The position numbers and the translations under genes are program-made. A stretch of 61,565 nt of DNA, counting the filler, from Hausera hauseri (lineage: Eukaryota), in NCBI GenBank assembly GCA_046269625.1. It is 11 parts of 11 records of this genome, joined end to end, with 100 filler letters (N's around TTAATTAATTAA, not from the genome) between each part and the next. Parts side by side here need not be neighbours in the genome. Positions count along the whole stretch, not along the records: positions 21,173 to 26,107 come from JBJURY010386702.1; 10 more parts are not named here. One strand, written 5' to 3'. This document shows, in pieces, positions 8,585-56,837 of the stretch; positions within the stretch are counted from its first letter, which is position 1, and each line of letters opens with the position of its first letter. The notes under the pieces are model-generated. The model ran no database searches. It saw nothing but the letters and a program-made list of their open reading frames with translations, and was not told where the DNA came from.

Positions 8585-8940
8585 GCAGTTTGTGCCTCGC
8601 TAGACATTACTTTTGAGAGTCAATTAACAACATACAAGCCAATAGCGCCATTTACACCAAATAATTGTTATACGAGTTTAGAGTGTAAAATTGGGAACAT
8701 AAGTGGTTAGAAGGGAAATAAGTAAAGATTAATTTGAGAGCAAACATTGATAGGTTTAACTCGTGTCAAAACCTATTAGTAAACGGTATAGAGAAACGTA
8801 ATCCAAGGGAAACTCGAAATAAACTTTATATCAAAGATAAGGTAATTGATAAGCGCTGTTTAGCCGACACTGAACTAGCCTCTGTTAAAGAATTCAAAGC
8901 TCCTCCTAGAATTAAAGTAGACAAACCGAATAAATTAAAG

Positions 8941-9985
8941 ATGGCAGCAGATAACCCAGCCATAGCTCAAAAACTGGATATATTTACGTTTGATTCCTTG
9001 AACTTACCGGCATATGATAGTGACCCGGACGGGCTAAACGACTTTTTAAGCACTTATAAATTACATGCAGAAGGTGCCAGTCTTGCGCCCGAAGTTATGA
9101 TTCAACGACTGTCATTATACTTACAAAACTTGGCTGCAGACGCCTACAGTGAACTTATTAACGAAGAGAAGAAATCATGGTCATCCGTAGTATGAGCCCT
9201 GAACCGTATACTATTGCCAACGGTGACGCCACAGCAAAAGCTTATGGCCTTCCAGAATAGAACGTAACAAAAAGGTGAGTCGGTTACTCAATTCGCATTC
9301 GCACTAAAGAAGCTTGCTAATAGTTACGTGAGTACGCTAAGGATAGCTAATGCGACAAAGGCAAAGAGAGACGCAGAACGCGAAGCGGCAGAAAAGGCGA
9401 GTCCGCCAGATTTAGATGTCATGATGACAACTCAGTTAATAAACGGTATATGGTCCATAGATTTAGTTAAGCAACTAATTTTAGCTCGACCAGACAATTT
9501 ATAGGCAGCATTACAATTATCTCAGAACTTAGAAATGGTGTTAGATAGATACGCTAGACAGAGTGTTAGGTATGACCGAAATAATGATCGCGATAACCGG
9601 GATAGGAATCGAAACAATAGAAGATTTAACGATAATAATAAGGACCGAGGATGAGAATAGAGCTCAAAATGCCTCTAATCGCAGCACGAGATATGGCAAT
9701 AGGAACTTTAATGATAATCGGAATACATAATCCTTATAACAAAACAGGTTATATTTCGGATAGAAATCAAAATAATGACCGAAGCAATAAGAACCGATAT
9801 ATAGATAATCCGAGTTTTGAAAACACAAAGAACGGAATCGAGAAGCAAGCTCAAAACAAGACAATAGCTATGCCCAAATCACCAGTGAATGAAGATGGAC
9901 GACAAAAGATCGGCCGAGACGGAAATCGGATTTGTTATTTATGTGGTAAGGAAGGACATATAGCTAGATCATGCCCTAATCCACG
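8941..9985 (+). pseudogene. gag: Gag with MHR-like motif and CCHC zinc knuckle
   Basis: LPAYDSDP..LNDFL, YLQNLAADAY, R.*QKGESVTQF, CYLCGKEGHIARSC; internal stops. Confidence 0.85.
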
Positions 9986-11412: not shown

Positions 11413-13035
11413 AATTGGCTAATTAACTTCCTAACCTTGATGATGTTAGTAAAGTGAATTGGAGCTGTTACGGTATACCACCGCGACAATTCAAACTTGG
11501 CCAAAAATATTCACTGATGGATTTATAAACATGGGAAGTCCCAAGGCCACACAAATTAGAAACAAAAGAAAATGACTACGTATTATATCAACAGCATGAT
11601 CTAACTTCTTTAGACGGAATAAAATGTATGTTTCGTAGATCTCGTAGTATTTTCCATTGTGAATAAATGCATGGACATAAAATAATAAAACCAACAACTC
11701 CACCAATCCCAATGAACCTAGAAAGACAACCCTGTAAACAGGCTAGAGAAACTGGTAGATTAAAATGGGATGGTATGGGACTAGAAATAAAACAAGGAAA
11801 ATAATTATATCATTTAAAGCAGCAGTCGGAAAATTAGATATGCATACCGAAATAAGCAACGGAGCCGAATACGACACTGGAAAAGGAATAGGAGGCGTAG
11901 TAGTTGTTGAATTTTATAAAATCGAAATGCGGATGTTTCATAGCGTTACTAAACTCTGTACTGAAAATCAAAAGTGTCATATACAGGACGGCATTTGCGC
12001 TTATAGAAGTTCAGTCGTAAATTTGGGAACCTCCAACTAAAACTGAATGTAACTTTATCAAATTTAACGAACCAAAGTTTAACGAAACGTCAGAAAAATG
12101 TTATGTAAACAGTATGAATCTGGTTCGAAAACGCGAGAAGACGTAGCAGTACAACCTACGCCAACCATATTAGTTTCCTATACTCACGGGTTAAAATATA
12201 TGAGAAAGGATGTACTCACACGTTGCGACGCAATGATGTATGCCATTAATTACAAAACATTTTTCGTAGCCAAAACTGAAATAAATATCAAGACGTTCAA
12301 ACTCGAAGCACACGTACGAATTGAAGATTGCTTGAAAAATAGAGATGTCTATTTCTTTTACAAAGGACAAGCCGGAATAACCGAACTATGTCATAAATTG
12401 TAATCACTGATTGCAAATTAGACTTTGAAATTACGAGAACTAAACTGGCTTTAATATAAGCTAATCCCTAGTTAGCATCACCAATAATTCCAATGAAGGA
12501 AGGTGTCGTTTTTCGAGTTACTGGTGAAATTTTATTAACTTATGAATGCGAAAAAAGAGATTTACCCATAAATGTAGAAGAAAAAAGATGAATTCAAGAA
12601 TTTCCAGTACTATACCGGAATATTCCGAGATTGGCGACGACAATTACTAGAGTTTTACCAGCAAACTCAACTAAACCAAGAATTTTGAAAGAATGTAAGA
12701 CGTGTCTAGGAGAACCAATGTTCAGACGTAACGAAACTGACTGGATAAGTTTACCAAATGAAAGCGTAACTACCCCGCACAGCAAATTAACGGGAACTAA
12801 CTTTGTAAAAGGAATAACGGACGACAAATTTCAAGACACCGCGATTAAAGTATTTACAAACCGAAGGAAGTTGAAGCACAGAACGAATGAAATACGATCA
12901 ACGTTTTCGAGAGACCGAGAAATGTAGGCTTTCAGAAACGCAGAATCGCAGCCAATAACTAGAAATCAAGAAACTGAAACCGTCAATTATGTAAATAATG
13001 AACTATATCCAAATGGAGAATTCAGACAGTTAGTT
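11413..13035 (+). pseudogene. env: Env: chuvirus/herpes-gB-like glycoprotein ectodomain preceded by an internal signal peptide; decayed, TM absent
   Basis: NWLINFLTLMMLVK*IGA|VTVY, KYSLMDL, IFHC, DGICAYRSSVV, RCDAMMYA, GEILLTYEC, EFPV, C...W pattern. Confidence 0.75.
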
Positions 13036-13139: not shown

Positions 13140-13440
13140 TGACCCTTCACTAAAATTCAAATAAAATGTTGGGAAGTCTATGAACTAATAGACACGGAAT
13201 CCCAAATATCACTAACAAAACACGACTCAATACTACAGGTTTTATGAAAACAATTATATCCACCACCAGCAACAGATCCAGGAACTGTTGGAGCTCTGTA
13301 TAGTCATCGAGATGTAAATACAGATGGAAGCCTGAAATATACATGATGGGAAAATCATTTCATCACGAATCCTCAATAATAAAACAATTAACTGATAATG
13401 TTGTGTTAGGAGACGATTTAGTGAAACAATTGTCAAATGT
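13140..13440 (+). pseudogene. pro: Retropepsin (aspartic protease), degenerate
   Basis: PFTKIQIKCWEVYELIDTESQISL (DTG degraded to DTE); downstream *CCVRRRFS-like remnant at the C-terminal LG.D position. Confidence 0.6.
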
Positions 13441-13769
13441 GGATTCCGCTGGAAAAAAGCAATCCTCCTAGAATACAGATGTTGATTTATGCACAATTCC
13501 GTCAAGATGATGATCAGCCAGTGTACTTTGAACCAAAAGAAACGCTAAATCCAAGCACCGTACACAGGGTATCGTCAGGCCGTGTGCCGATTAGATTAGT
13601 AAAAATGCGCCAATTCCAATTAAACTTTACGGTAATACTACAGTGGGTCATACGTATAAAGTGTCATCGATAACTATCGAGGAAAAACCTTATAAACGCT
13701 CTCAATTTCAATCTCATGTTGAGAATAAATTTTCACCTGAGTTTTACTGTCGCTTTTATGACCTGTTAT

Positions 13770-14740
13770 AAATCGATTATTGATGAAAATAAAGATATTG
13801 GTAGAACTAAAACTCCAAGGTTAACAATTCTGCTTAAGAGAAAGCCAGGTTCAAATGACTCAATAAATCTAGAAGATCAGAAGATGCCAAAATAGTATCC
13901 TATGCCTCATTTATTAATACTTGAAATAAGAAAAATTGAAAGAATGCTTAAAGCCGATATCATTAGACCGAGCTATAGATCTTGGTATTCACTTATACTT
14001 ATGATTAAAAAGAAAGGTTCCACAAAACATCAATTTTGTATCGATTATAGAGCGCTGAGCAATCTTATGATGAAAGATTCTTTTTCATTACCATCTGTAA
14101 AGGAAGCTTTAGATAGACTCTCAGGAGCAAAATGGTTTACCACTTTAGATTTGCAATCCGGATAGTGGCAAATAAAAATAGAAGATAAAGACCGTTACCA
14201 GATAGCATTTAAAACTCACGATGGTATATGCGAGTTTAATATCATGTCATTTGGTATTACAACCGGACCAGCTATTTTTCCCCGAATGAATAAAATATTG
14301 ATGGGATTAGAACATGCATTTGCATATTTAGATGGTGTAATGATAGTGTCATGAACGGAAGATGAGCATGTAAAGGATATCGAAAATACACTTACGAGAT
14401 TAGAACAGGCAGGATTAAATCTAGATCATACGAAATATAAATGAGCTCAGAATGCGGTATCCTATCTCGGACATATAGTTGGAGAAGGAGGATCGAAACT
14501 TGATAAGTCATTGTTAAACAAAATATCAGACTGTATGGAACCACAGAACCAAAAAGAATTAAGACATTAGTAAGGCTTGTATGGATATTATGCGACTTAT
14601 GTGCCAGAATAATGAAAATTAAATGCACCATTGTATCGTTTACTTAAAAAAGGAATCAAGTGGAAATGGACAGACGTCGAACAAAAGGCCTTCAACGAGA
14701 TGAAGACAATTTTAACCAGCGACCCAGTAATTCATTACGT
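13770..14740 (+). pseudogene. pol: Ty3/Gypsy reverse transcriptase, decayed, truncated before RNase H
   Basis: IIRPS.RSWYS, FCIDYRALS, WFTTLDLQSG*WQI, MSFGITTGPA, YLDG (YLDD), YLGH, AFNEMKTILTSDPV. Confidence 0.9.
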
Positions 14741-17700: not shown

Positions 17701-18621
17701 GTAAGTTAATTTTGTTTTTCTTTCGTTTTGAAGTAACGCCAAATTTTTTGCAACATTTTTTGTACCGTTGAATGATAATTTTAGGAATATTAATTTTTTA
17801 TTTGATTTTCCTAGTTGTATATTTGGTGAAAAAACGGTAAACGGCAATTACATTGAACAGAGAATGTTTGTTTTATGTTTCTATTGTGATTTTTAACATT
17901 AAACAAAAATCAATTCAATTTTATTTGTCGTAACGACAGAATTAAAGCACAATTTTTCAAATTTAATTGTCAGATAATATATTTTATATATTGCGCTAAT
18001 TTTATTCGCACTGCGCAATCGCCGAATATCGTTATTCCGACGGATGTGTAACAGTTGACAGTGTAATCTGACTCATTTTTACGTGCAGATTTTCATCAGT
18101 GCGCGATGCACGAATGATCGGTGAGTGACGGCTGGTGAATTGCTTTGTTAGCGTGACTTGTTTCATCGATAGATTTTAACAATTGAAATTTGCCGTTGTG
18201 TGAATGTTTTGTTATCGTTCTGAATTACGACCAGTACATACACACCCACACATTATAATGGAACAATATTCAACGGGATAGCACCAATTTCCTGCTGTGC
18301 CATTTTACCTTTTGTTTACCTTTTTTTTGGACTAAGAAAAGTCGTAAAGGGAATTTTTTTCACTGTAGCAAGTTGACTATGAATGATTTTATTATTTATC
18401 TATTCACTGCTAATAGGGGAGGTAGCAGAATGCGACACTCCGAGCGGCACTTTGGTGGGATAGTAAAATAAGGCGATGAATTGTATGTGGAGACACGGGT
18501 GGTTCACAAGACAGACTTCTGGTCATTAAAGATAACTTCTTACTTAATGGAACTTGAATGACGTCTCTCATGATGTTGGACAACCAGTGGCGTAGCAAGC
18601 TTTAGTGATGCTTGAGATGGT

Positions 18622-18910
18622 GCCCCTTCCTCCACCCCCTTCCTCCCCCTTCCTTTACTCCCTTCCTCCGCCCCTTCCTCCACCCCCTTCCTCCATCCCT
18701 TCCTCCACCTCCTTCCTCCCCCTTCCTTTACTCCCTTTCTCCACCCCCTTCCTCCACCTCCTTCCTCCCCCTTCCTTTACTCCCTTCCTCCACCCCCTTC
18801 CTCTGCCCCTTCCTCCACCCCCTTCCTCCATCCCTTCCTCAGCCCCTTCCTCCACCTTCTTCCTCCGCCCCTTTCTGAACCCCCTTCCTCCACCCCCTTC
18901 CTCCGCCCCC
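18622..18910 (+). repeat. Pyrimidine-rich degenerate minisatellite (CCTTCCTCCACC-like units)
   Basis: Seen directly. It generates the Pro-rich and Gly/Glu-rich ORFs in the track. Confidence 0.95.
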
Positions 18911-19439
18911 ATTTACGTTTATCTGTGTTTAAATCTATATATAGCATGTCGAAAGAGGGGATGGGTTGGAGGTTAAACCTTCTATGGGATCTGACTCCAA
19001 ACATTTTTGTTTATAGGATCTGTTATGTTTCGGTGGACCACATCGAGTACAAAATATGCTATCGGTCAACCAAAAATCTAATTTCTCTGAAATCTAAGTT
19101 GTGCTCCAACTAAACAAAATCTGGGATATTTATGAATTCTGTCTATTTTAATTTGAGTTATTACATCGAGAAATTTCCGGCAAATAACCCCCGTAAACCG
19201 CCTCAGAATGGATCGATCTCAATAAGTTTTTGTAGCAAATTTTGTCTAGTTTCCAAATATAATGGTTTTTCTCAAGATTTTGATTAGAAAAAATTTCCCG
19301 TTTACGGATGTCGCGATATTTTCTCTCTTTAATTATTTGTATTTATTACACAAAAAACTAACACAACAAAAAGAAACTTGAAAACGAAGAGTTTACTGAA
19401 GCATTTTATCACTAACTGACCATAAAATGTCAATACACA

Positions 19440-21172: not shown

Positions 21173-22245
21173 ATTGGCGTAGATTAGAGCTAATTTAGTT
21201 CTCATAATTTCCAAGTCTAATTTACAATCGTTTGTTATCATCTTGTGATGCAATTTTGCTATTCCGGCTTGTCCTTTATAGTAAAAATAATCGTCTCTGT
21301 TCTTCACATAGTCCTCAATTCGGATATCTTGAGTCTCGAGTTGAACTTTCGTACATTTATCTCAATCTCGGCTACAAAAAACGCTTCGTAGTTGGTAGCA
21401 TACATTATTACGTCGCATCGGGTGAGCATGGTTTTCTTTACGAATTGTAATCCATGCGTATCCGAAATCAATATAGTAGGTGTGGACTGTTCGGCCACAT
21501 CTTCTCGTGTTTAAGAGTTGGTCTCTGTATTAGTTATGTACCGCTTTCCGGTCGTCTCGTAAAATTTTAATTCTTTGATCCTAATGAAGTTACAATCAGT
21601 CTTAGCTGGTGGTTCCCAGATCACTACTGAGCTTCGAAACGGACAAATGCCATCCTGGATGTTACATTTGTGGTTTTCGGTATAGAACTTGGTAACGCTA
21701 TGGAACATTACTTTCTGTATACGCATTTCGGTTTCATAAAAATCCACTACCACAACGCTCGGCTCTAATCCTTTTCCCGTATCATATTCTATACCTGGGC
21801 AATGTCCAGTGTGCATATCCAGTCGTCCTGCTGCCACCTTATATACTCTAATTATTTTTCCTTGTTGCATCTCCAATTCCATGCCATCCCACTTTATCCT
21901 TCTAGTTTCTCTGGCTTGTTTACAATGTTGACGCTCTAAATTCATTGGAATTAAAGGAATGGTTAGCTTGATTATTGACAAGTGTCCATGTATTAATCCA
22001 CAGTGAAAAATGCTTCGAGATCGTCTTCACATACACTCTACTCCATCTAATGCAATTAGTTCGCGTTGTTGATATAACACGTAATTTTTTCCTTTGTTTC
22101 CAGTTTGTGCGGCCTCGCATTTTTGCACATTTCCAAGTCCATTAGGGAGTATTTCTGGCCAAGCCTAAATCTATCACAATCATATACAGTGACGGCACCT
22201 ATCTGCCTTATTAGCATCATGATGGTCAAGAGGTTGATTAGCCAA
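21173..22245 (-). pseudogene. env: Env N-terminal half (gB/chuvirus-G-like) with internal signal peptide
   Basis: WLINLLTIMMLIRQIGA|VTVYDCDRFRLGQKYSLMDLEMC ... RSIFHCGLIHGH ... CKQA ... CNIQDGIC..RSSVVIW ... DCKLD. Confidence 0.8.
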
Positions 22246-25200
22246 TTCGATTCGTTTCCTCTGCGGTTTCCGGTTACGTTTCGTAGCAGGTCACCGAGCC
22301 TGTTGTTGTCGAAAAAGAATTCTCCTTTATGTTCTTCTTCCTTTTCGAAAAACTTCGACCAATTTACTTCTCGAGGTATTTTTCTGCCAGCCTTCCTTGC
22401 TAAGCTAGTAGCCTTATTAAATTCATTTTCGCGGTTCGGGTTGGTCTTTATGGCTAGATATAACATCACTTTCCTCAATTCCTCTACGGTATTTTCCATC
22501 ATAATCTTCTCAATCGTTGCTTCATCGCTTAAGGTACTTTTGGATAATTTATACCGGAGTCCTTTCATGGCTTTGGCAGCATTTAATATGGTCTTTTCTT
22601 TTTCATCTAACACATCGCCGTTCAAACTGGAGTGGTTCACTTTTCGTATCAGATCTTTCATTAGTTCATTCAGTTCCTCACTGTCTGCACTAAAGGTTGG
22701 TATGGACATCTGTCTCAGCTCTCTGATCAAATCTTCATTATAGTCGATTTCTTCTCTTACCTTCCGTGGCCTACCAATAGGTCGCTTCTGTTTCGTTACG
22801 ACAGGTATACCAACATTAATCGGTACTAAATTTTTATCGTATTGTTCATGATCTTCGTCTCTCTGTAAATACTCAATGTACACTACCGCGTTTCGGACTC
22901 CTATTATTCGTCCTACTGGCTGTTCGGCCTTTGCCTTCCTTATAGCCTCTTCTTTTGTCTCATCGTTAGCGATAGTTACCACTAACTGGTTTACCTCGTC
23001 CGGAATGATTCCAACCTCTATTAATAGTTCCGACTCGTCGAGCATTCTCCCTCTAAAATATAATCTATAGTTCACCTCTTGGTTGTAACCATTATTCTTT
23101 ATACATAATAATACATCCTTCACGGATGAATGTGTGGTGAATTCTTGCTCTTTTTCATCCATCCAATCTGCCGTTATTTTAACTTTAATTCCCTCGTCGA
23201 GCTGGTCCTTGGAAATTTGGCATATTCTTTGATTAGAAGTTTTGGCGCGGCATTGTAAACTGTCCCTTCGCCGGCTAATTTGGTTAAAGTGGGAACCCAC
23301 CATCTTAATTGTTTTTCAGTGAGGTTCACATTGATTAACCTAAATAGTTCCTTTTCAGTTTGTACCGGATCTAATAGCATTTCTACACAGAATTTCTGTT
23401 CTGGCGAGCATATCTCCGTTTCGTTTAAGTGTACTGGAGTTTTCGGGGTTTCGGCTATTATGGCATCCAGATATGCCTCCCAATCTGGTTCATTTTCATT
23501 ATCCGGTAGTGTATAACTTCTTGGTAGTGTATCAGTCGACTCTCTTGCACCCGTCATCTCTACGGTTGCTCTAAGTTCACGTAGCTTCTGTTGCATTATA
23601 ACCATTTGGGTGGGTCGGAAGCAGCGACCATTTCCTGAACTTCGATGTAGTACCGTTAGCAGCTGGCATAATTCCTCGGCTGATATAAGTCCCTTTTCCT
23701 GGTAATTAGTTAACTCGGAGGCTACGTCTCATTGCCACCTTTGTACAAATTGCGACTTGTCAGCCTTCTCTGCTTCGGTAAGAGCATATTTAACTTTACA
23801 TGGTTCGAGTTCTTTGGCGAGCTCGTCCAATCTCGTCGCTCTCTGTTTGGTTTTGATATTAGTATCTTCCACTTGCTGTATCTGGGGCAGCAGCTGTCTT
23901 AATTTCTCATCGCTGATTTCGGCCATAACTTTGGAGTCGGGGTCTATCTCGTCCCGTAGCCTTTTTATGAACTTGTCTTCTTCAAATTCCAAATATTGCT
24001 CATTTCTCATTTTAGTTAGTTCGGTATGATACCTTTGATCGACTCCAGGCATTCCTTCCTGTGGTTGATGTAAAAATGCCACTATCTCTTCGAGGGTCGA
24101 CCTGTGATTAGGACAAACGTCTAATGCCTTAAGGTCACGTACGGATATTTCTTTTATGGGCTTGGTGGCCAATTTTTGAATCCCTTCTAGACGGACTTTT
24201 CATAATTTCGAATAAAGGTCGTGCATCCGATTCCGTTTTTGCGCAAAGTTTGTTTCTTCAATCGTTTTGTATATATCCCCAAGTATCATCATTTCTTGTT
24301 CCTTGTCCATAAAATCCACTGAGCGTAAGGATTCGAATTTCGTTCGGATATCAATTTCTGCTTTCATCGTATCTAAATTTTGGGCGCCTTCTTCCAACCG
24401 CCTCTTCACTCTGAATTCGCTTTGCGGAAATTCATTCATCCGGCTACTTGTTAGTTTGCCCAACCTTGCTATTACTTTCGACCACTCATTCATTTGATTC
24501 TTGATGTCTGACTTTGCTAATATTGCTTTGTTTAACATCTTATTGGCATCTTCCAGTTCTTCATCTGGGCCTTTGAGGAAATCAATGATCTTACAGGCAT
24601 AGTCGAACTCATCTTTATATTCATCAAATTCGAGGATACAAGCTATAATTATTCTCTGTGTTTCATCGTTATTTGGGTACATAATTCTATTCTTTAGACT
24701 ATTTATCTGCGACCGTTTTTCGGCTTCGAGTTTGATACGACTTTCCAGGTTAGTGTATTGCCTTGTCGCATTAGAGGCGATTTTTATCATTTCCATTAAA
24801 GGTGGAATATCTATGGGGTCTATACCCAACACTTCCAAATCCGTTTCAGTCCTTTTTTGAACCGGTTTCTTTTTTATTTGCTCAACTATGATAAATCTAA
24901 TTTCGTCCATTACACGCTTTAAATTTCGTACCGCTCGCTTTAATTTCGGGTTTGCTTCTAATATTGCTAGCAGCGACTGAGCCTGATTCACTTTAGTTTC
25001 TATGTCTTGTGTGGTCTTATACCACATCTCTAAGTTTTTCGTCTCAACCTTCGTCCAGTGTTCTAATTCACTCTTCCATTGTGCTAACATTTCTTTTGCA
25101 ACTTCATCGGGTTGATCCAAATCTATGGCTTCATTTAACTTCCCTTCACTATACAGTTTCACCTTTTTATACAGTCTCTCGACAAACTGCTGTTCTTTGC

Positions 25201-26045
25201 CAGAAATATCCACTTGTTCACTTATCGCTTTGAGTTTCTCTAAATTCTGTTGTAATACCTCCGGGTCGTGACAATTTTCCCTCATTCTTTTTAACTCCTC
25301 GGCATTTTTCCACGAGCGCCTGATTTCCCACTTTTAGGGATCAAGTTTCTTTTCTTGTTCGGTTTCCTCTTCACTAGTAGGTATCGGACATACATCGTTT
25401 ATTTCATCCGCAAATTTTATCAATCCTTCTATTTCTCCGTGCGTGACTAAACTAACTTCTGGACAATTTGAGGCGTACTCGATGTGGCTTTCTGGTGCGA
25501 TTTTGATCTCTTTCTTTGTGCTTTACTTGCGCATGGGAGATCTTAATCTATCTTTGCCTTTTCGCTTCAACGAGGGACTAGGGCCTCTGTTTTTAGTAAT
25601 TTTAAGTATAAGCGGCTCTAGGAATTCTTCCTTCTCTTCAGCGTCTATTTCCTTAGTTATCTTTTTCATAGTATGCTCGGGCTCTACCTCTATAGTTACT
25701 TTATCCGGAGTCTCAGAATTTTCCATTTCGTCTGACTCTTTGCTTGTCCTAGAGAGGTTCTTCTGCCGTGCCATATCAGTAAGCCTTGGCGGGGCGATAG
25801 AACGTTTATATACCGTTTTTTGTTCATGATAAACTTCCATTAGTCTTAATTTGTGCTCATATTCATTTCTAGCTACTAAGAATTTAGGGTCACCAGTATC
25901 AGGCTGATTTTTCAAAAAACGCCTTAAATCTTGTATCTCAATAATCATGCCTGTGTTTCGACAAATGCCATATATTGCTTCTAGATTTTCGTTTCTAATT
26001 ACGTTAGTTTTACTAGGTTCCACGAACGAAACGCTTCGCGGATTC
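22246..26045 (-). pseudogene. Region X (~1,250 aa): RS/basic patch, helical/coiled segments with SAM-like repeats, ubiquitin-like domain, AT-hook
   Basis: Long co-framed ORFs. Ubl-like YRLYFRGRMLDESELLIEVGI; AT-hook KRPIGRPRK. Confidence 0.7.
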
Positions 26046-26414
26046 GGACAAGACCTCGCTATATGTCCTTCTTGTCCACATGTAAAACAGACTAAATTGC
26101 CATTTCTNNNNNNNNNNNNNNNNNNNNNNNNNNNNNNNNNNNNNNNNNNNNTTAATTAATTAANNNNNNNNNNNNNNNNNNNNNNNNNNNNNNNNNNNNN
26201 NNNNNNNGTCAGATTATTAATACGTGTCTGAAATTCACTTTTTCTCTCTAATGAATTTAAAATTGTAATATTTTTGATCAAATCTTTATGTATAAGATTA
26301 GGAAATCTCCAGACGTTTGAATTTTTGAGGATATGACAATTCGTGGGGAATCCACTTATCCATCTTTTTCACCTTTCAAATTTTATTAAGGTAACGACAT
26401 CGTTACTATGGATA

Positions 26415-27672
26415 ATAACTGAGCAAGAAGTAGAGGCACAAAATTCAAAACGCAATATAATGGAAACAGATAATTATTAGTATAATATAACTTAAACCGC
26501 CAGGGATTCGTCCTTAGCGCACACTCGTAGATTTTTTCGAAAGGCCTTGAAAAGGTTTTTTCCACATATTTGGCGATTTTTATCGACAGCGGTTTCCAAA
26601 TTCGCGTTATCTGGGCAACCGTTGATCCATTTTGCTTCTGATGATGGTACTCGGTCTTACATAACGCCAAAAGCGTTCGATAAGTCGGCATTGAGGTAGA
26701 TTAGGGGGATTCTCGGCCTTGGGTACGAATTGGATTCCAGCATCCGCAAATTTATCGGTAACAATGCGTGCGTAGTGGGCTGTGGCAAGATCAGGCCAAA
26801 AGAGAATCGGTTGAGGACCCTTCTTCTTTTCCAGGAGCGGCAATAACCTTTTTCCAATGCACTCAATCTTGTAGATCTCCACGTTGATGGTCCTTTGAGT
26901 GACAAAAGGTTCCGACACATCTCCGTCCTCCGCATTCGCTTGCCATATCATAAGTTTTTATTCAAATTTGCCGGTCTGCACGACAGTTTTTTCAAGTGGA
27001 ATTTCCTCTCCGGGAACATCATTGTAATATGCTGGTTGTGCGACCTGGGTGGGATTTGTTGGAACGTAAGTTTTATCGTGCAACACAAAAAAATTTTCCT
27101 TCCGGATTTGACGCTCAACTTATAAAGTTTTGCGCACCACTGCATGCAACGGACAATTTGGTTCGAAACGTACTTCGGTTTGAGACTCTTCTTTCTCCGT
27201 TTGATCCCGACCGACTTCTTGATGACTCGCAATGTTGACTTCTTGAGATCACGTTTACAAGCACGCACCTTGTTTGACAGCGTTGTGTTCTTTACGCAGT
27301 CGCTGATGACTCTAGCCTGTTACCTTAATGTGTTAATAACAGACTGTCGTCCCGGAATTAGCTTGAACAAAGCAGTGCCATTTCGTAGAAATGGTGAAAT
27401 GACATTATGGATGGTCCTGGAAATCCCTGAGTCACAAAATGTCGAACAATCATTTTACGATCTTCTCCATACTTCAGGACAAAATAGACTATTGACTGGG
27501 CCTTGAATTGGTTTTGCTGCCGGATCATGGTTGCATAAGAACGTGATTGATTTGACAGTTAATGAGATGTAGCTAACAAACTTTCAAACAAAATGTAAAT
27601 TTGAACCGTATCTATTAGAGAGCGTGCACAATAGCTCTTTAAATTTTGTGCCTCTACTTCCTGCTCAGTTAT
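26415..27672 (-). mobile_element. Tc1/mariner superfamily DD37E (ITmD37E-like) transposon with decayed transposase
   Basis: ~35-bp TIRs ataactgagcaagaagtagaggcacaaaattcaaa / tttaaattttgtgcctctacttcctgctcagttat, TA on both flanks. FWPDLATAHY...NPPNLPQCRLIERFW has exactly 37 residues between D and E. Confidence 0.9.
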
Positions 27673-30180: not shown

Positions 30181-31019
30181 AGCGTTGGACATCGGACCGA
30201 TTCAAATCGGTAGAGCTCGACAAGGCGAGCAAAAGTTTGTAGCGCGGGTAAGTCCCCAAATGTAAGGGAGAGGAGCCAGAAGACGAAAAAGAAAAACAGG
30301 AAATGCATCACCAGAAACGCGTAACACATTCATGGCGTACTAATACAATGGGCATACGTCAAATCGATATCGGCGAGTCGAATGGACACACTTTCAACGT
30401 TTTTCGCACATGGGAACATGGGGAAAAATCGATGGGAAAAATTCAAACTCTAAAAATTTCCCATTGCTCAAGTCCAACGGCGACGAAAATTCAATGAGCA
30501 CGTAGCCCGTGACGAGAAGCACATTTCATATTATAAGCACCTCACTATTAGACGATTGCAAGTTGGTGAAAAATAACGCGAAAAGGCGTTGTTAAAATCT
30601 AAAGTTTTATTTTGTGTTTGTCGTGTCGTGTCGTGTCGTACAATAATCGAAATGGAAATTTTCAAAATCATCAGCGACATTATTATCGTCATCATTCTCA
30701 AACCATGAGCATGTAACCAGGTACTACCACTATCTCTTCTCACCGTGAACAAGAGGTGCGAGAAGGTGATTGACAATAACCGACCTGCCTGGCTGCATGC
30801 CTGTGTGAATGAAACTGTTTGCTGCAACAACTGCGCAAAATAAAAAGTTGTCGCGCCAAACAAAATATTTCTGCGTGCGCGTGCTTTTAGCAAAAGTGCT
30901 GGGAAAAATAACACGCACATGGATAACAAAATACTGTATTTTTCAAAATGAACACAAAGTAAATAAGTCAGTAAGTAGTAGAGTAGTAGTGTTCAAAACA
31001 TGATAATGATGATCAATGT

Positions 31020-31400
31020 TCATCCAAGTGTCTGTAATGTAAGCCACAATAAGTAGTAATGTCCACACAGTATAGTACTTGGATGTTGACAATGAAGTCT
31101 GTTATATTCAACGCAATATGACGATTGTCTTTCAATTTGAGAAACTAACGATGACGGATAGTAAAATACGAGCGGATCGGATATGTTTACGGCGAAGTTC
31201 GTAGGATGTATGTACACAGCAATCCAATGTTCGCCGGGTAACGATGACGTGTGTGTATTGACAATGAAGCCGCCAACACAGTCAATTTGTCGTATGTCGC
31301 GCGGTACACGGTCCAGCGGAAACAGACTGCGAAATTTCTCGCCCATGAGCAGTTTTCCGTAGCAATTGAGCTCGATGGAGCTAAATGTAAAACATGGGAT
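31020..31400 (-). pseudogene. Polinton adenain-like cysteine protease
   Basis: GGFIVNTHTSSLPGEHWIAVY...DPL...QHPSTILCGHY (H, D, Q and C catalytic pattern). Confidence 0.85.
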
Positions 31401-31478
31401 TAAAGCATAACAATATTAATAATCAATTACTTCATATTTTTGAGTAGTAATATGGCAAGAGTGATGCATTAAATTTAT

Positions 31479-32238
31479 TTATACAATGGCGGTTCCGCTT
31501 TTTGTTATTTTCAACTCGGCATTAAATACACCGTAAATATGCATCACGGTAAACTGTTGCAGCGCTTTGCCAAAGTGAACCTCTAATCGAAGGTTTTCCT
31601 CTTGACGTAATTAAGGCTTCTCAACACCATAGTCCGGGGACAGGACAAATGTGAAGAATGCGTAGGTGGACTTGAGCAAATCCATCGATATGCCATTGTT
31701 GATGTCTTTCTTGAGCAAACCTATGTTGCACACGACGGATTGTATATATGTGCAAACATAATCATTATATTCAAAGTTTTGTTTGTACGCCTCAACAAAA
31801 TCCGCATACCGACCCAAACAGATGTTATTCACATTGCTATGGGTAAACGTTTTCTAATCGGTCGTATAACTGCCCGTTTGTTGAACAGTAACGAGCACAA
31901 ATTTGGGCAATCGCATGTCGCCAAACAGGGCGTCCTTATAAAACGTAGATGAACCTTTGGGTATCGTGTAAAAGACGAGTTCTGTGCGTTGTATCTGGTA
32001 ACAGGCATTTTGTGTTTCCAAGCCCAATCGATGTCCCATGAGCACAGATGGTTCTATCTTTACAACACGTACGTATAATAGTGCCTCGGTAATTTTTAGT
32101 GTGGGTTTCAGATTTGCAACTGCGGTTTTCAAACAAAAGACATTGTCGCTTCGTTTGAGCTGAATCATGGCTTTAACACCGGGCAGTAGGTATTTCGGCT
32201 GATCGAAAAAGTCAAAGTACAGCGGTCCACACATTGTA
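31479..32238 (-). pseudogene. Polinton major capsid protein, C-terminal part
   Basis: GPLYFDFFDQPKYLLPGV, LYVRVVKI, RLPKFVLV, NLRLEVHF. Close homolog of 55535-56766. Confidence 0.85.
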
Positions 32239-33649: not shown

Positions 33650-36600
33650 TTATTTCAGCCGCCAATATCCGTACGCCCAACTCTTATTTCGCCCCATCCA
33701 CTTTCGCTTATCATCGTTATATGACAAAGCGACTTTCGCACTAGTTATTGTGTACAGGCGGTGCTCAATTGATCGGATGATAGTTTAAAACACAACAGCC
33801 ACTGATTGTTCTCCTTCTGCTGCTGGTGCTTCATATATACGACGATAATCACCGTTGCCGATTTCCATCTGCTTCAGTTGGATGCCTTTTTCTTGTATTT
33901 TCGGTCCACAATCCATCAGAAGACTGCAGCACTTTGAGCGTAGGAATATCCATTTCCGGTACTGAACCCGACCTTCACTTTCATCTTTGAAGCAGCCGAT
34001 TTTGTTGGTTATAGCGCTGCTGTACAACGCATGATCCGGTGGGTAGTTGGACGTGTCCAGTAATCCATTTGACTGCATTTGCTGACGTAGCTGTTCGCGA
34101 TTGACTTTTTTCAGCGCTGGAAAAAACTGTCAGTGTCACCTGCAATTATACTAATGTCACAGCCGTCAAACATTTTCCGGTAACGTGCCAAGTCGCGATA
34201 CAGTAGCTCATACATCCGAAACTTGCTCAGGTTCAATACCATTTGTCAGATGTAACTTGACTAGACCAGAACGACTTCTTCTATGTTTAACAGCACTACA
34301 ACCAATCCATCGGCAATGTGTATTGACGCCGAAACTGCGCATTATTCGTGTACGTAACCAACCGCTTTTAACTATTGCATAGGCGTACATTAAGCCGCTT
34401 TTTCAGATTCTCAACTATTTTGCCATACAGGGAATTGTTTTTCAGCTTATAATAGTTCTTTTCGAACTTTGTACAAGCTGTGGCTCGTTTCTCCAAATTT
34501 CGACCTATGTTCGCCTTGAATATCGGAGATTGAGCAAGTCGGATTGCACGATGTAGCTGTGCAACGCGAACACCGAGTTGCGTGTAGAGCTGTAGTGGAC
34601 GCCAATAGACTACGTAATTCAGCTTCGGTTCATTCGTCATGAGCAGTTTCTTCACTTTTGAGCCTGGTGGACATTAGTTAAATGGTGCGACCGGAAAATC
34701 GTCCAAAACGTCATGCAGCTCATCTGGTATCTCGAGATCATCCTCCATCAGGTATCCAATTAAGCTTGCCATGTCTGTTCGTGGTAGGTTGGCCATTATG
34801 TCGTCCAGACCTTGTCTGTCGATTACCCATTCAAGTGAACCGAACGGCAAGGGTTGCGAAAGCGCCCAGCCGTACAGGTTATTAATATCATTATACAGCA
34901 GTGATGTGGTATCGGTAGCACTGATCTGATGCTTTTTGACAAATGTCATGCCACCTCGAATACCAACATCAAACAGTCGGTACATTTCCGGGTCTTGCAG
35001 CAGCTCAATGTCTCGATTCAATGACATTAGAGCTGACGCCAAACTCATTACCGGTATGGAATAAAAATTGAGTGGCTCCAGCCTATCTTCAGTCAACGCT
35101 TTAGCTTGAAATGTCTAAAACACATCGGCTAATAAGTACACGTCCAGTTTCAGATACTGAAGCATGTACTCCAACATGTTTCTACAGCCGAGTTCTGTCC
35201 AACACCTCTGTGATTTCTGGTATTCATCCTCTGCGATACCTGTCCATCTCGGAAGTAATTCCCCTGCTGTTCGGTGTCTCTCATATAATGTTTCAAAGCC
35301 ATACGGGAATAATATACCTTTGCTACGAGCAGTATGTGTGGGAAATTACATCAATGTCATCGGCACATCCTGCAAGGCATTTACGAGCCTTCCTAGAGAC
35401 GCATTGAAAAATTGCTATGAGTCGAGGAAGAGTACTTGGAACGGGTTTATGCGTGCTTATAGGGACAGGTATTTTCTCATTGTTGTTGGGATTACTGGCA
35501 GTTCCCAGTGGGTAAATCCATTAATGGTCCATTTCAGTATATGGTGACAATCATAACCTGGAAAATTATGAAAGATCACCGGTAAAAATGGCCGCACACG
35601 CCTTGCCAAATTGCAAGAATTATATGCTGCTCCGAGATATTGAGCAGTCAAATGATCGTGATCCGGTACGAGCTATTCCAGTGCGCCAAACGGTAATTTT
35701 TGTGGCACAGGTAACATTCATCTGTGACTGCAAGCGTCATGCGTTCATCATCATTTGTCAACATCAATGGTTTATTGCTTTTTCTACTGTGCCACAGTTC
35801 GATTTCAGTTTTCACTATGGTTTGCAACTGCTGCTGGAAATCACGTACACAGTTCCAGCCGTGAAAGGCGTAATATGGAGGTTGGCCGACCGCTTTTATT
35901 GGGACAATCAACATAACAACGGCGATAGGAACGTGCTTTTGATCATACACGTTGTGCAGTGGTAGAATTGCATCAATATCGTCATATACCACATATGCTG
36001 GATTGGCCGTTTTCGACCAGTCACTGAATCGGAGTTCCTTTTTGAGTGGCATGACGTACATGGTTGTTCCCGCTAAATTCTGCTTGCACAGCATCACATG
36101 TTTCTCCAATGTTGTTTTGACCTGAATCCATGCAGACATACGGGACACCATTTGCATCGTATTTGCTTTTTGATGAACTGGTCATGCTCCATGTTGAACA
36201 GTCTATTCAGATTTGTCACTGCCACGTAATGAAAATTTTCACCCTGCTCCAACAAAAACAAATTTACCGAGTGTCCATTCGGGTTTCAATAGCGATAAAT
36301 TATGTTTACATGGGGTTTTGTAAAAATTTCTTCGTCTTCCGGTATTTCTATTATTGTGTTGTACCGGAAAACGTTGACTGACAACATCGGATTACGCCGT
36401 TCAAAAGCCGGAATGGTTTTCAGTTTCATCGGCATCCAGCATTCATCAAATTTCAATTTGGAAAAATACTGCCGATACTGATTTGGACGATTTGCATGAT
36501 ATCTGTTTACTTCGCTGTACTTCAATACAGCCAGAATGCTGTACAGAAAGCAGTATTAGTCGTCATTATTTTGTACATTCACTACCTCCAAAGACTGCTT

Positions 36601-37150
36601 TAAAGATGCAGGTGTTGGTATGAGTGACAATCAAGACAAATATACTACGTCACTCGACTTTGTTATGATATAGCCGAGTGTGACAATTCGTATAATTCGC
36701 CATCCACTACCCTTTTCGGTATAGTTGGCGATTTTCTCATTCAACTTTTCGCCTACATCGGCAATAAAATCTTCCGAATACGGTACGGCTCGATATGACA
36801 GGTACCATTGTTTCCTGTCACCTTCAACATTTTCATATTCTGCAAGTGCATAATATTGCACTTTCGAGTTGTTGTGTTTAAATTTCTCCACCTCTAATTC
36901 TAACCGGTTGCACACACTGGACCGAATATGTCTCAGCTCTAGTGTTGTTGTCCCTGACATGTTTACTTTCATGTCCACGTACAATTTGTTTAGATTGTAC
37001 TTGACAGTAATGGAAGGTTTCTGCTGTTGCATCTGATTCTGTTTGGTACTGTTTCGCATGTATTCGTCAAGACTTGTTGAGGCCTGACGTTCCTGCTTGT
37101 TGAGGGGATATTGGTTTTTCTTGTCGCCGTCACTATTTCCTTTGTGGACC
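33650..37150 (-). pseudogene. Polinton pPolB with N-terminal extension, decayed
   Basis: GSGW, CFLYSILA, FHNFPGYD, GIRGG, YNDINNLYGWALSQPLP, KLKNNSLYGK, GDTDS, IGCFKDE, LSYNDDKR..AYGYW. Confidence 0.92.
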
Positions 37151-38669
37151 ACTGAAACTGGTTGAAGTGGTCCTTGTGCTGGTTATAAAATTGTTCATAG
37201 TTGATTTCATCAACCGTCGAACAACCGGAACAAACGTAGGCCCGTTTACGGTGCACCGTTCTGACACTATAGTACTGCTCCATTACACTATGGTAACCAT
37301 CAATGTCATGCACTTTACTACTAGAGTATCGCGGGTATGTTGAGCAATGCACAACTATCATCTTTTCACGCGTAAACGGGCCAAGATGATACTTGTGCAT
37401 CGCATGAAAGTCAAGGTGTGGACAAGGAGTCGAAATTTTACCTCACGTTGGGCACAAATATGAGTCCGTGCTAACGGTGTAATATTTAGCCATTTGCCGA
37501 TGGCACTGCTCCTGCTCCGCATGTATGCGCGAGACGCAGTACATGGGATAATTAGTATACTTCTGAGTGGGAAACAAAATAAAATAAATATTTTATATTA
37601 ACTTATAAATACTGTAAATTGAAATATGACAACTTATTTGTCGGTCGTGAGAAAAAAAGTCTCCTTGTTCTCTTATAAACAATTTTTCTAAATGCTGCAA
37701 TAACAACAACAACAACAACAACTAAAAATCACATGGAACAGTACACTGAAAGCGAGATTAAGAAATTGACCGATGACATTTTGACTGGACATGTGTTTCA
37801 TGTTCAGTTTTTGTGTGAGCTCACAGAAACCAGAATAATTAGCCGACGGGAATATATTGAATTAATTCTCAGCCATCTATTCATACAACGTATCAAAGAT
37901 GAAATGAGATGAAAACGGCAAAGGATTAATATCCTTATTTGACTCACAATTTCCGTTTCATTTTGTATTGTATTCAAGAAACTGATTGACCATATTTGAA
38001 TATTTCGCTATACGTTTGTTTTTATGTGTCAATTACATTTATTTTGTTTCTTTTCGTTACACTGCTGTATAAATACTAGTGCTTCTTCGTTCCTGTATGA
38101 TTATAAAATGTGTCATTTAACACAACTCATTCGTCCGCATCACTCCTTTGATGGTCTCCGGAGTCATCTTTACAACCTTGATCGACCTTTACAATGTGCT
38201 TGGTATTCGTCTCTTGAAACGATACTGCTAAGTGCTGAAGACAATTGGAAATCACAGGAACTCTATAGACGTCATATGAAGCAGACTGTTGGTGACATGG
38301 ACGTGATATTCAGTCAGATTTTTCGCACATGACAGAAATTGGCGGATACCTATGCACTGTGTTATAACAGTCCATGTCAAATGCAATTTGTGGATGATTT
38401 TGTCCAAAGCGACCAGATGATAATGGATTACGTTCCCATGTGGCAATCGTAGCAATCCGTTCGACTTGCCAACATCAATTTTACCTCTGTACAAAATTTC
38501 GGTATACCAACAACATGTGTTGCGTTGCCGGTTGCACATTGCCCATTTTTCTTCTTCCGCCTCCTGTGCCGCCGGGTTACATTTTTCGGCTTCGCGGCGC
38601 TGTTGACTTTTGTTCGCCTTGTCCAGCTCGACCGATTGGTCTCTATCCAAAGTTCATTCCCCGACCTTC

Positions 38670-40610: not shown

Positions 40611-41559
40611 NNNNNNNNNNNNNNNNNNNNNNNNNNNNNNNNNNNNNNNNNNNNTTAATTAATTAANNNNNNNNNNNNNNNNNNNNNNNNNNNNNNNNNN
40701 NNNNNNNNNNGGCAATATGACTTTAAGCAAATTCATTGAACAATGAACAATCCTTAATATAATGTCCGTGTATGTATAACTGTACATGAATATAGAACAT
40801 TTCTGATTACATTCTGAAAAAGAGGTCGGCAAATTTGACGAAAAAATTCCTCTATGTACTCAACAAGCTCTACATATGGATCTGAAGATAGTATCACATT
40901 TCTGATTATTTGTTGTAAAAATCCCTGTGACAATAATAAATGTTCCTTTGTAAGATAAATTGTGACACTATAAGATTCAACTGTTTCATTTTTTCAGAAT
41001 CCTGAGGGGTAAACAATTCGTGATTTTCAATAACATTCTGGACTTATTCAGCCATAAATTTGAGCAGATGAAAACTGTCTTAAACTATCGAGCGTATAGA
41101 AAGCTTTGTTTGAATTATAACTGAAATGTAATATCAATTATTTGGTGTTTGCGATAAAGCTTATAAAAACGATTACAATGTATACTAAACATAAAAATGG
41201 AACCAAGTGGGTTAAAGACGTCTATAAATGACACAACATGCTCAAAGAACAGAATAAAACGATTGACATCTTGACTCTAGTTTGTTAAATTCTAAATCAA
41301 TCATTTTATATTACTCCTGTAAGATATCCTCCACTAGTGGATCTTTGTAATCGCTTTGTCTTGCATTTCGTTGGTTATCTTTGTTAATTGTTTGAACAAT
41401 CATACTTATCAGTTGTTCTGTATCCATTATGCGTTTCTTTCGTGTTTTTAGGTATGCTTGGATGAACTTTCTGCGAATAATATGCATTCAGATCCTGCAT
41501 GTTGTCGTAATCAAAGTTAAAATGATCATTATAGTCTTGATCGATATCACTTTCTTGAA

Positions 41560-42900
41560 GTCTTGACAAGAAATCCGCATTAGCGTTTGCTTTTCCTTGC
41601 CGACATTTTATCGAGATTTCTAGATCCTGGATTTCTGCAGCCCATTTCATTAATTTTCGACTGGTATCCCGTTGCTTCATCAACCATTGCAAAGGTTTTT
41701 GATCCGTATATAGTATTGTTTTTCGTCCGGTAATGTAATACTTAAAATATTCACTTAAAATATTTCACTTAAGGTTTTACTGAGACATGCTATTATTCCT
41801 TCGCGTGGTCTATCAGGAACTGATTGTCCTAAGACTGCTCCTATCGCATAACCACTGGCATCAGTCATAATTATATAGGGATAATTAGGATCAGGAAACT
41901 GTAATATCGGTGTGGAAGTTAAGACTTGTTTTAAGACTTCGAATGATCTCTGATGTGTCTCTTCTCAATTCCATGTTGTTCCTTTCTTGGTTAGTTCCAC
42001 TAGTGGTTTAACTATACATGCAAAATTATATACAAACTTTCTATAGTAATTAGCCATTCCTAACAGTCTCTGCAATTCCTTGAGATATTTAGGTGGTTTT
42101 AACTTCATAAGTTTTTCTACATTTCTAGGATCAGATTGAATACCTTTACTCGAAACTATATGTCCAAGAAAAGTAACTGTGTTTTTCGCAAACTTACATT
42201 TCTTCATTTTAATCTTTAAGTTGGCTTGTTTCAATCTATCAATCTATTTTAAATGTTGTTCGAAGTTTTTAGAAAATATTATTACGTCGTCTATATATAC
42301 CATGCAGTGAGTTAATCCTTGTAATACAAAATCCATACATCTTTGAAATGTAGCAGGTGTATGTTAGTCCAAAAGGCATAACATTAAATTCCCATAATCC
42401 AGTTCCTGTGGAGAAGGCTGTTTTTTGTTTATCCTCCTCAGCTACTTCTACTTACCAAAATCCGCATTGTAAATCCAAGGTGGTGAATATTGTAGAGTTT
42501 TGCAAGGCCTTTAACATTTCATCTATTTTTGGTAATGGGTAATTGTCTTTCTTTGTAACATTATTTACTGCTCTAAAATCCACACAAAATCGTTGAGTTC
42601 CATCCTTTTTCTGTACCAATACTACTGGAGATGTCCACGGTGAGAAGCTTGGTCTGATAATACCGTGCTCTACCATTTGTGCTATTTGTCTGTCACATTC
42701 TTCTTTCTTAACTTCAGCCATTCTATACGGATTTTGTTTAATAGGACAGATATTCTCTGTAATTATGTGATGTTGAATGACATTACTTTTACCAATATCA
42801 TTATCGTTCATAGCTATTATATCTCGATTCTTGTGAAATATTTGTAACAATTTCTTTAGTTGATATGGGGTTAAATCACCATATTTAAATTTGATATTCT
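41560..42900 (-). pseudogene. pol: Reverse transcriptase and RNase H
   Basis: IIRPSFSPWTSPVVLV.KKDG..RFCVDFR, LDLQCGFW, MPFGL, YIDD, FLGH, TDASGYAIGAVL, TDQKPL, NANADFLSR. Confidence 0.93.
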
Positions 42901-43269
42901 CGTCTTCTACGAGAAACGTTGCTGCACATACCTTGACAAATTGTAATTATCCTAAATTGAGATTTTGTCCCAATCTGATTTCCTTCTTATTAATGCTTTC
43001 TATTGGCAACTCCAAACGTTGTACTTCTTTTGGCACAAATAAAGGTATTGCAAGATCTTACATTTTTCGTTGTTATACAAATTTGGTTCGAACATACAAG
43101 TTTGCTTGAGATTTCCAGATGGTATCGTTAACATTACCACTATCTGATGTTGTGGTTTGATGACGATATTATGGGTCAAGGTCATATTAATTTCTTCTAT
43201 TGGTAGATTGGTCATCGTATATTTGAGAGTTTTGGTCGATATATCCATTGAAAGGTCCGATATCTGGAA

Positions 43270-43555
43270 AAATACATCCATTCCTATTACTAAGGGTGCT
43301 GGCAATATTTTATCATCCACTAAAAATAAAGTGATCGTATGTGAGTTATCATCAATTCTTATTTTAATGTTTATTTTTCCCAAAAATTGCACCTGCATGG
43401 AATTAGCTGCTGCTATTACTATATCACTTGGCATGATTTCTCCCTTTTGTTGGTCGGTTAGATACGAATATCGAATCATCGAAACGGACGCACCGGTATC
43501 TAATAGTGCCATTATATTTACTCCAATAAATCGCACTGGAACATAAGGGTTATTT
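43270..43555 (-). CDS. pro: Retropepsin protease domain within ORF 43000-44058
   Basis: PYVPVRFIGVNIMALLDTGASVSMI...LVIGMDVF. Confidence 0.9.
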
Positions 43556-44039
43556 CCTGTTGTTAAAGTGGTTTGTGTCATGAAGATGAATTTTGTATTG
43601 TTCCATCTAGCATCCGCAATATTGTATTGTCGAAGTACACTTGGTGGATAAGCAGAACTCGGTAAGCAAGTATATTCATCTAAATGTCTTGCCATTGGAA
43701 GATCATGCATAGACGTGACTTTCCTTTCTCTATATTCAGGATATTCTGTAAATTCATCGATAGGTTCGGGTTTATAGTATGTTTGTACTTCTGGCTCAGA
43801 GTGTTGTCTAGCTTTCTTTCTTAATAATTTATATTTAACTAGATATTCCTCCACTGCTAACTTAATAAAAGCTTGTAACTGTTGTTCTAGTTCTGGGGCT
43901 AAACGAAGTTCTTTTCTTAATTTGTCAAGTTCCTTTGCATGCAAATACATTAGTGGTGATTGAGCCATAGAGGGAAAACATTTCAGCATAATTTGCCATG
44001 TACAACCACGTACTTTCTTTATATTTCCGTCGGCTCCTA

Positions 44040-45031
44040 TTTGACTTAATATAACCATTATGGTGGTAGTTATAACATATATACCGAAAACTCCAGATAT
44101 AACCTGACAAAAAATAATGAACTTATTCCAAAAGTCCTAAAGGATCTTTTTAGCTGTTCTCTCTAAATGGTCATTTGGAAATAACATTCCATAATTAGGT
44201 ACACCATCTGATCCTTTTATAACAGTATATTCGAATTCTGTGATGACTTTTTCTCGTATATTCTGAAATAATACTTGTTTTTTTACTGCTTCCAGGTCTG
44301 TTAAAGAATATAATCCACTGGTGGGAAGTTCTCTGTTCACTTTAAACTTTATATCTTTATCCAGTGGTAGTAATCCAATTGTCTGTGGTATATTCATCAT
44401 AGTTGGTGGGTGCGTTTTGGTCCATCTTCCGTCATTAAGTTTAAAAGCTGGATAGAAGTCTTTGTAACATGGTGCAAAGTTAATTTCAGTAGGCAACAAT
44501 AATTTTTGAGTCATAGGGTTTACAGATCCGGTTCTAGTTATCTTTTTATCATTATAATGAACCACTAATTCGCTTGTACAATTTTTTCTTGTGCTTGTTA
44601 TTGGGGTTACTTCTATTGGAGGACACTGATACACATGGAGTATTTCACCTTGTACTGTATTACATGTTCCAGGGCGATATCCCATAATTAAGGCGATATG
44701 TTCTGGGAATTCTCTGGCTAGTATCAAGTCGTGCTGGTTCATTTTTTGAGTGATTTTACAGTCTCTTAGTACCATCATGTTATATAACTCAACTAAATCT
44801 ATTTTTGCGGTGTAAAAAATATAATTTATCTTGTTATTCGTGTATAGGTAACACTTTATATTTTCACTCAGTAGCTTTTCTGTATTTGCAAGAGTTACGT
44901 TTGTTACATACAGTTCTTCATAAGATATAGAATAAACGACATTTGATCCACAAGTCGATACTGCTCCTTTGCGTGCCAGTATGATTTCATCTTTGTCACT
45001 GGATGACATTAAGACTTTTAAAGAAGTGGTT
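44040..45031 (-). pseudogene. env: Env C-terminal half plus transmembrane anchor (gB/chuvirus-G-like)
   Basis: YTNNKINY..LVELY...DC..LILAREFPE, PG..QGEILHVYQC, CTSELVV, SGLYSLTDL..VLFQ. One TAG (44137-44139), then DFWNKFIIFCQVISGVFGIYVITTTIMVIL (TM), in frame with the protease. Confidence 0.8.
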
Positions 45032-53567: not shown

Positions 53568-53569
53568 AA

Positions 53570-54028: not shown

Positions 54029-54143
54029 TTCTATAAATAACTATGACGTAATAAAAACCGGCTTGTAATGGTATCTAAGTAACTCAAACGCCCAGGGGTC
54101 TTTTTGTTTCAAAATTTTTACGCACTTTGATAACAACGTTTAC

Positions 54144-55515: not shown

Positions 55516-55534
55516 TTGACAGACGGACAGACAA

Positions 55535-56766: not shown

Positions 56767-56837
56767 ATAAATAAAATCCTCTGTGTCGTTGTCGTCGTCT
56801 TTGTCTTACTATGAAGTAATTTATTTTGATTACTATT

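Follow-up and report, generated by a model that had tools for sequence, protein, structure and literature searches.

A predicted internal signal peptide ahead of a chuvirus/gB-type Env in decayed copies of a GAG-ENV-POL retroelement from Hausera hauseri

Retroelements with an envelope gene between gag and pol

The closest described systems are Burro and GYPSM1, giant gypsy-like elements of planarians, Burro being over 30 kb long, in which env lies in frame between gag and pol (PMC6431247). The Burro ORF is described as carrying Gag, zinc knuckles, Smc-like, Ubi/SUMO-like and BCL2-like domains, a mononegavirus-like Env and then protease-RT-RH-IN, and that description names no signal peptide or processing route (PMC6431247). 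GAG-ENV-POL errantiviruses with an HSV/gB-type Env have been reported from nematodes, bryozoans and flatworms, with the Env ectodomain flanked either by a signal peptide and a TM or by two TMs (PMC13524379). The main text of that paper contains zero occurrences of 'signal peptidase', 'in-frame', 'polyprotein', 'fused' and 'splic', and its Figure 5A may show the layout. In the BEL/Pao group, Atlas belpaovirus encodes Gag, Pol and Env as a single polyprotein in which TMs lie internally and host cleavage sites are predicted (PMC9094657), and Anakin is an LTR element that captured a chuvirus-type glycoprotein, the main text on which has 0 occurrences of signal peptide (PMC7642597). The gene layout is thus already known from planarian elements, and an earlier reading of the present DNA, made from the sequence only (hereafter the sequence-only reading), overrated its novelty, as env in frame between gag and pol had been described for Burro (PMC6431247) and a gB-type Env between gag and pol for errantiviruses (PMC13524379). 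No explicit signal-peptidase model for such elements was found in the literature searched. In flavivirus, hepacivirus and alphavirus structural polyproteins, a capsid is followed by an internal signal, a lumenal glycoprotein, a stop-transfer TM and cytosolic enzymes. The nematode-restricted NERVs, said to have been described by Sacco et al. in 2022, reportedly encode gag, env, pro and pol in one continuous ORF whose glycoprotein was captured from an RNA virus.

Broken copies of the element in the window

The whole stretch of DNA analyzed, here called the window, comprises 61,565 nt of ~5 kb contigs joined by N-linkers and carries decayed transposon fragments of types that suggest an animal host. 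By eye, these fragments include Polinton/Maverick-like ones at 6260-7700, 30196-32238, 33900-37200 and 53500-57900 with genes for DNA polymerase B, major capsid and adenovirus-type protease, a Tc1-like transposase remnant at 26600-27200 (-) and a Tigger/CENP-B-like remnant at 58960-59400 (+). Positions 31026-32238 and 55999-57206 are inverted copies (79% identical), 3450-4138 and 5472-6159 form a 690-bp direct repeat (98% identity), and 18621-18916 is a G-rich tandem repeat. The signal-like stretch under study is found on contig 21173-26107 (JBJURY010386702.1), minus strand, in what we call copy 2, which has the following features.

26042..26092 (-), Gag CCHC zinc knuckle (Pfam zf-CCHC, E 1.3e-7); the contig begins at 26107
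23729..25333 (-), long charged X region, probably coiled-coil, which shares the Gag frame and is broken by stops (5 in this frame)
22959..23201 (-), ubiquitin-like domain common to relatives (profile of 9 relatives, 19.7 bits, E 1.7e-7)
22311..22763 (-), helical domain; a Bcl-2-like domain occupies this place in some relatives
22248..22268 (-), weakly basic stretch before the core, by sequence reading; charge not conserved
22194..22244 (-), predicted internal signal peptide, h- and c-region, with the predicted cut after 22194
21173..22193 (-), N-terminal part of a chuvirus/gB-type Env ectodomain, in three frames, ending at the contig end

An ORF at 23315-22056 (-) encodes a 419-aa product, P0001, that reads NRRGNES at 22268-22248 and then N-WLINLLTIMMLI-RQIGA, with the W at 22244 and the last A (the -1 alanine) at 22196-22194; VTVYDC (22193-22176) is directly 3' of RQIGA. 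The stretch had been placed deep inside a long-open ORF, and this holds upstream, where the frame is open for 357 codons before the W at 22244. It does not hold further out: the frame closes ~40 codons past the predicted cut site, and the zinc knuckle upstream is in a different frame with 5 stops in 994 codons, so copy 2 is not a polyprotein ORF. The proposal that a chuvirus-like glycoprotein follows is borne out by a Pfam PF24664 match on the ORF after P0001 (E 4.7e-9), which backs the family; the labeling of YDC as its signature motif was the earlier reading's own. A profile of 16 relatives matches the copy 2 Env in three frames (22244-22059, 22098-21346 and 21385-21170), and the c-region is several residues shorter than in most relatives.

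The domains upstream of the signal are less clearly assigned. The X region gave weak coiled-coil-type Pfam matches only (best E 0.0013). Atlas feature searches returned leads below 0.8 only, among them ubiquitin-like clusters at 0.76-0.77 for the 22959..23201 region, which count as a lead only. Predicted structures of the upstream domains are poor (pLDDT 38 and 43), too poor to speak against a diverged Bcl-2 fold, and a fold search with the low-confidence model of the helical domain gave no match at E 0.001. Bcl-2 identity for this domain is not supported, as a Bcl-2-like profile from four relatives scored it at -0.4 bits, below shuffles. Bcl-2, MATH, dUTPase, BIR and ankyrin domains, accessory domains of Burro, were not found among the window ORFs scanned, with the post-RT regions of family A lying outside the window. 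A GRP[RK]K motif, which we take to be AT-hook-like, occurs between the ubiquitin-like domain and the signal at 22761-22787 (-) in the window and in P0004-P0010.

The window also holds further parts of this element (family A), including copy 1, and of a second family, B.

8878..9980 (+), family A Gag, a capsid-like region with a zinc knuckle, on the contig before that of the copy 1 Env
11416..11466 (+), signal-like stretch, copy 1; hydrophobic core and IGA-VTVY kept, with an in-frame stop
11467..12918 (+), broken Env ectodomain of copy 1, by the relatives' profile; C-terminal TM not found
13334..14738 (+), weak protease-like remnant and reverse transcriptase of copy 1, on the same contig after Env
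41543..45030 (-), family B: C-terminal half of Env, TM, aspartic protease, RT, RNase H

The reported conservation in copy 1 extends to the core and IGA-VTVY, but one in-frame stop falls shortly before the core and a second in the c-region, the YDC cysteine is absent, and a frameshift comes just after the stretch. The copy 1 protease-like remnant scores 5.8 bits on its profile (E 0.006), and its RT is 40-47% identical to those of relatives. The Gag-like region at 8878..9980 matches the P0013 N-terminus (tblastn E 3e-16) and zf-CCHC (E 1.5e-6); the gag and env parts of copy 1 are on different contigs of the joined window. No intact form of family A was seen. Over local segments its Env has ~22-42% identity to relatives, and the family A RT sits on a long branch of an RT tree built from unnamed relatives with no named Ty3/gypsy references. 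A TM followed by a protease, part of the earlier proposal, is seen in family B (TM at ~44118-44041, aspartic protease at 43548-43255 (-)). Family B is nevertheless separate from family A, their RTs being 40% identical, and no TM was found between Env and the protease-like remnant in family A copy 1 (maximum KD19 0.61 versus 2.0-2.25). A gB/chuvirus-type Env between gag and pol is found in pieces, with copy 2 running from knuckle to Env and copy 1 and family B from Env to RT. The order within Pol is PR-RT-RH in family B and a weak PR followed by RT in family A; no integrase was seen for either family in the window. The best explanation is that the window element is a decayed GAG-ENV-POL Ty3/gypsy-type retroelement with a gB-type Env. 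The window copies are dead and cannot perform the processing proposed below, and because stops and frameshifts interrupt them, it is the relatives that carry the polyprotein claim.

Intact relatives and their membrane segments

Length-limited and whole-library homologue searches yielded 15 related proteins (P0003-P0017). P0001 itself found no homologue among longer proteins and one match, P0004, in the whole library. A scan of metagenome contigs confirmed 2 of 194 candidates (L001 and L002) and a scan of viral contigs 0 of 195. L001 encodes P0011 in a 3703-codon ORF, and L002 has a new 5'-open ORF of 3426 codons; this ORF and P0003-P0017 make up the 16 long relatives, and P0001 brings the set to 17 sequences. 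The searches covered long proteins only and would have missed any stand-alone Env. NCBI files P0014 under a Flavobacteriaceae MAG, which probably reflects eukaryotic contamination of that bin. There is no LTR pair within L001 or L002, and the window contigs are ~5 kb fragments. Contigs of two sequencing runs cover the element in 30 of 30 bins with 11410 and 1542 diverged pieces, which indicates a multi-copy family.

The relatives have, in single ORFs, the order Gag-X, signal-like stretch, Cys-rich Env, TM and protease-RT-RNase H-integrase, and this order, its continuity in frame and the sequence features are direct observations. Gag to integrase is contained in one protein in P0006, P0011 and P0015 (by Pfam) and in P0013 and P0017 (by Gag similarity), and nine database relatives have the Pol order PR-RT-RH-IN. 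The hydrophobic stretch precedes [YF]DC in frame in 16/16 long relatives, 153-1365 residues from the ORF start, and in 16 of the 17 sequences no 12-mer anywhere upstream is as hydrophobic. In eight relatives the PF24664 match begins at profile columns 5-7 on the signal-like stretch, as expected of the Env family's own N-terminal signal. All 16 relatives have an Env ectodomain of 529-546 aa with exactly 14 Cys and 1-4 sequons, followed by a C-terminal TM; R-x-[KR]-R sites are absent from all 16 of these ectodomains. P0012, P0013 and P0017 have a second moderately hydrophobic segment after the Env TM (KD15 ~2.1), which would invert the downstream topology if it crossed the membrane. Captured domains elsewhere in the relatives include a weak death-domain match in P0003 (1202-1264, E 1.1), ankyrin repeats in P0010 (2588-2695) and C2H2 fingers in P0008 (1403-1497).

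The stretch has a hydrophobic core of ~12-15 residues and then a polar c-region, as expected of a cleaved signal peptide, in which the core is 7-15 residues long. The small-residue site IGA before VTVYDC, pointed out in the sequence-only reading, is confirmed and extends to the relatives: at a fixed offset from YDC, position -1 is A, G, S or T (A in 12) and position -3 is small or aliphatic (T/I/V/S/A/G) in 17/17 sequences, which are kin (P0005 and P0007 are nearly identical here) and do not amount to 17 independent trials. The same -3/-1 pattern is found at 943 of 11222 upstream positions (8.4%), and the residues at both positions vary among kin within the allowed set. The same reading had a basic stretch followed by the core. 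NRRGNES and the core are indeed present at 22268-22194 (-), but the basic charge is weak and is not conserved, with a net charge before the core of -3 to +5 across the 17 sequences. No Met before the core is conserved; the nearest upstream Met in P0001 is 94 residues before the Y, and P0006 and P0012 have none within 120.

Further membrane segments follow Pol. Nine of the 10 RT-bearing relatives (P0005-P0007, P0011, P0013-P0015, P0017 and L002:2-10282) have a second signal-like core and C-terminal TM after the integrase, a property of the relatives only, as the window does not reach that region in family A. The ectodomains of these modules are ~110-390 residues long and for the most part do not resemble one another, although some look FN3-like by eye; that of L002 has no PDB or Pfam identity. 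A third signal-like/TM pair is visible by eye between protease domains at ~4700-5500 of L002, with no clear Pfam identity. P0004-P0013 have 2-4 aspartic protease domains per polyprotein, one of them after the integrase in several. A downstream ORF matches an RNase T-type exonuclease (L001:12085-13473 and L002:10617-12107), and DEDD exonucleases have a precedent in rotifer LTR elements (PMC5408684). Modules of the post-integrase kind were not encountered in the papers searched, PMC13524379 among them, by searches that were not aimed at them.

A predicted signal-peptidase cut and its rivals

We consider it likely that the stretch is the captured glycoprotein's own signal peptide, retained within a single long ORF, and that host signal peptidase cleaves there, as predicted. 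Gag-X would be made in the cytosol, after which the stretch would target the ribosome to the ER and open translocation; both host and viral proteins are known in which an internal signal acts behind a very long cytosolic region. Signal peptidase would cut three residues before YDC, Env would fold in the lumen, and the Env TM would stop transfer and return protease-Pol to the cytosol. The topology proposed in the sequence-only reading, with cytosolic Gag-X, lumenal Env and cytosolic Pro-Pol, fits the order in the single ORFs of the intact relatives, a support that is comparative and predictive. Gag-X may stay membrane-anchored through the signal stub until trimmed by the element protease or a host intramembrane protease. 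Because the cut would sever Pol from Gag, Pol would have to enter particles as a cytosolic tail on Env and not as Gag-Pol. We speculate that the 2-4 protease domains of several relatives may suit such a membrane-tethered precursor.

Other readings of the stretch lead to different topologies. In one, most Env comes from a spliced or subgenomic RNA that places a start codon before the stretch, and the long ORF serves Gag and Pol. This has a parallel in Drosophila gypsy, whose env uses spliced RNA, and copy 2 does have a YAG 115 nt upstream of the Y codon, with 9/15 pyrimidines. However, the same site in copy 1 has 5/15 pyrimidines, the best acceptor candidates of L001 and L002 lie elsewhere, and a crude count in four DNA sequences made no shared acceptor evident. 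With Pol downstream in frame, full-length translation would have to cross the stretch and the TM anyway, and we find this reading unlikely. The stretch could instead be an uncleaved signal anchor, leaving Env as a lumenal loop on two membrane segments, which the element protease would release from the cytosolic side. With an anchor so close ahead of the first Cys, class III refolding would be hard to explain if that Cys corresponds to the first one of herpesvirus gB, which bonds to the membrane-distal crown. The core also spans only ~12-15 residues and leads into a polar linker with the conserved -3/-1 pattern, and so we regard an anchor as quite unlikely, even with the two predicted TMs that flank the gB-type ectodomains of some errantiviruses as described in PMC13524379.

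A third origin, as the tail anchor of a captured Bcl-2-like domain that came to lie before Env only secondarily, draws on the position of BCL2 just before env in Burro as described (PMC6431247), on a sub-threshold Pfam Bcl-2 match shortly before the signal in P0010 (E 0.0015) and on BH1/BH2-like motifs seen by eye in P0003, P0011 and L002. The L002 segment gave no Bcl-2 match to Pfam or PDB sequences, so the label rests on the P0010 match and the by-eye motifs. Against this, the 12 relatives that lack the domain have the stretch all the same, in 3/4 of those with it the distance from the BH2-like W is ~55 residues, and it is with the start of the Pfam model for Env that the stretch aligns; the helical domain in the window failed to score on the Bcl-2-like profile. 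As an origin of the stretch, a Bcl-2 tail is highly improbable and largely refuted, and the stretch may still anchor that domain after cleavage. A chance hydrophobic run in a decayed repeat is scarcely credible. The 12-mer tops all 377 upstream residues of P0001 (KD 2.28 vs 1.82), and shuffles of P0001 match it anywhere in the ORF in 876/5000 cases but within the last 35 residues in only 60/5000, so it is notable by position and not by strength. The comparison with relatives refutes chance, as the stretch is in both window copies and 16/16 relatives.

Taking the stretch as a signal peptide cut by signal peptidase, the usual Gag-Pol packaging rule of LTR elements would be broken and Env-dependent assembly at the ER would be predicted. 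It is possible, at somewhat less than an even chance in our estimate, that the whole lineage makes a flavivirus-style multi-pass polyprotein from which signal peptidase frees two to three type I membrane proteins, the gB-like fusogen and fast-evolving partner ectodomains after the integrase and between proteases, with Gag membrane-anchored, Pol packaged as the Env tail, assembly at the ER and equimolar Gag, Env and Pol. The repeated signal-plus-TM modules of the relatives point to unrecognized partner glycoproteins for class III fusogens. No solved fusogen was among the 60 matches listed for the Env alignment profile, and class III status therefore rests on Pfam and PMC13524379.

Each of the known systems shares part of this arrangement. 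Like the errantiviruses described in PMC13524379, the element has a Ty3/gypsy-type Pol and a gB/chuvirus-type Env between gag and pol, with an ectodomain that in the relatives lies between a predicted signal peptide and a TM, and by eye the Schmidtea Env rows in supplement 2 of that paper resemble the relatives. As a retroelement polyprotein that includes Env and is predicted to be cleaved by the host, Atlas offers a precedent (PMC9094657), but it is a BEL/Pao element whose class II phlebovirus-like GN-GC is at the C-terminal end with Gag-Pol intact upstream. Anakin likewise has a chuvirus-type glycoprotein in an LTR element and differs in being BEL/Pao (PMC7642597). The flavivirus, hepacivirus and alphavirus polyproteins have the same working scheme as proposed here; they are unrelated and serve as an analogy only. 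The NERVs are reportedly similar in their continuous gag-env-pro-pol ORF and captured glycoprotein, and processing may already be discussed there. The likeness to Burro is judged by description and not by alignment: the window has a knuckle, charged X region, Ubl, Env and then RT, and a Ubi/SUMO-like domain before env was found there with the relatives' profile. The relatives show the whole domain series (P0010 also has ankyrin repeats) and a single ORF with env between gag and pol, where the window copies are broken. A BCL2-like motif before env was not found in the window (-0.4 bits). The element is Burro-like and is not assigned to Burro, given this Bcl-2 result. For GAG-ENV-POL elements such as Burro, the predicted cut would supply the missing processing step by which an Env encoded between cytosolic regions reaches the lumen.
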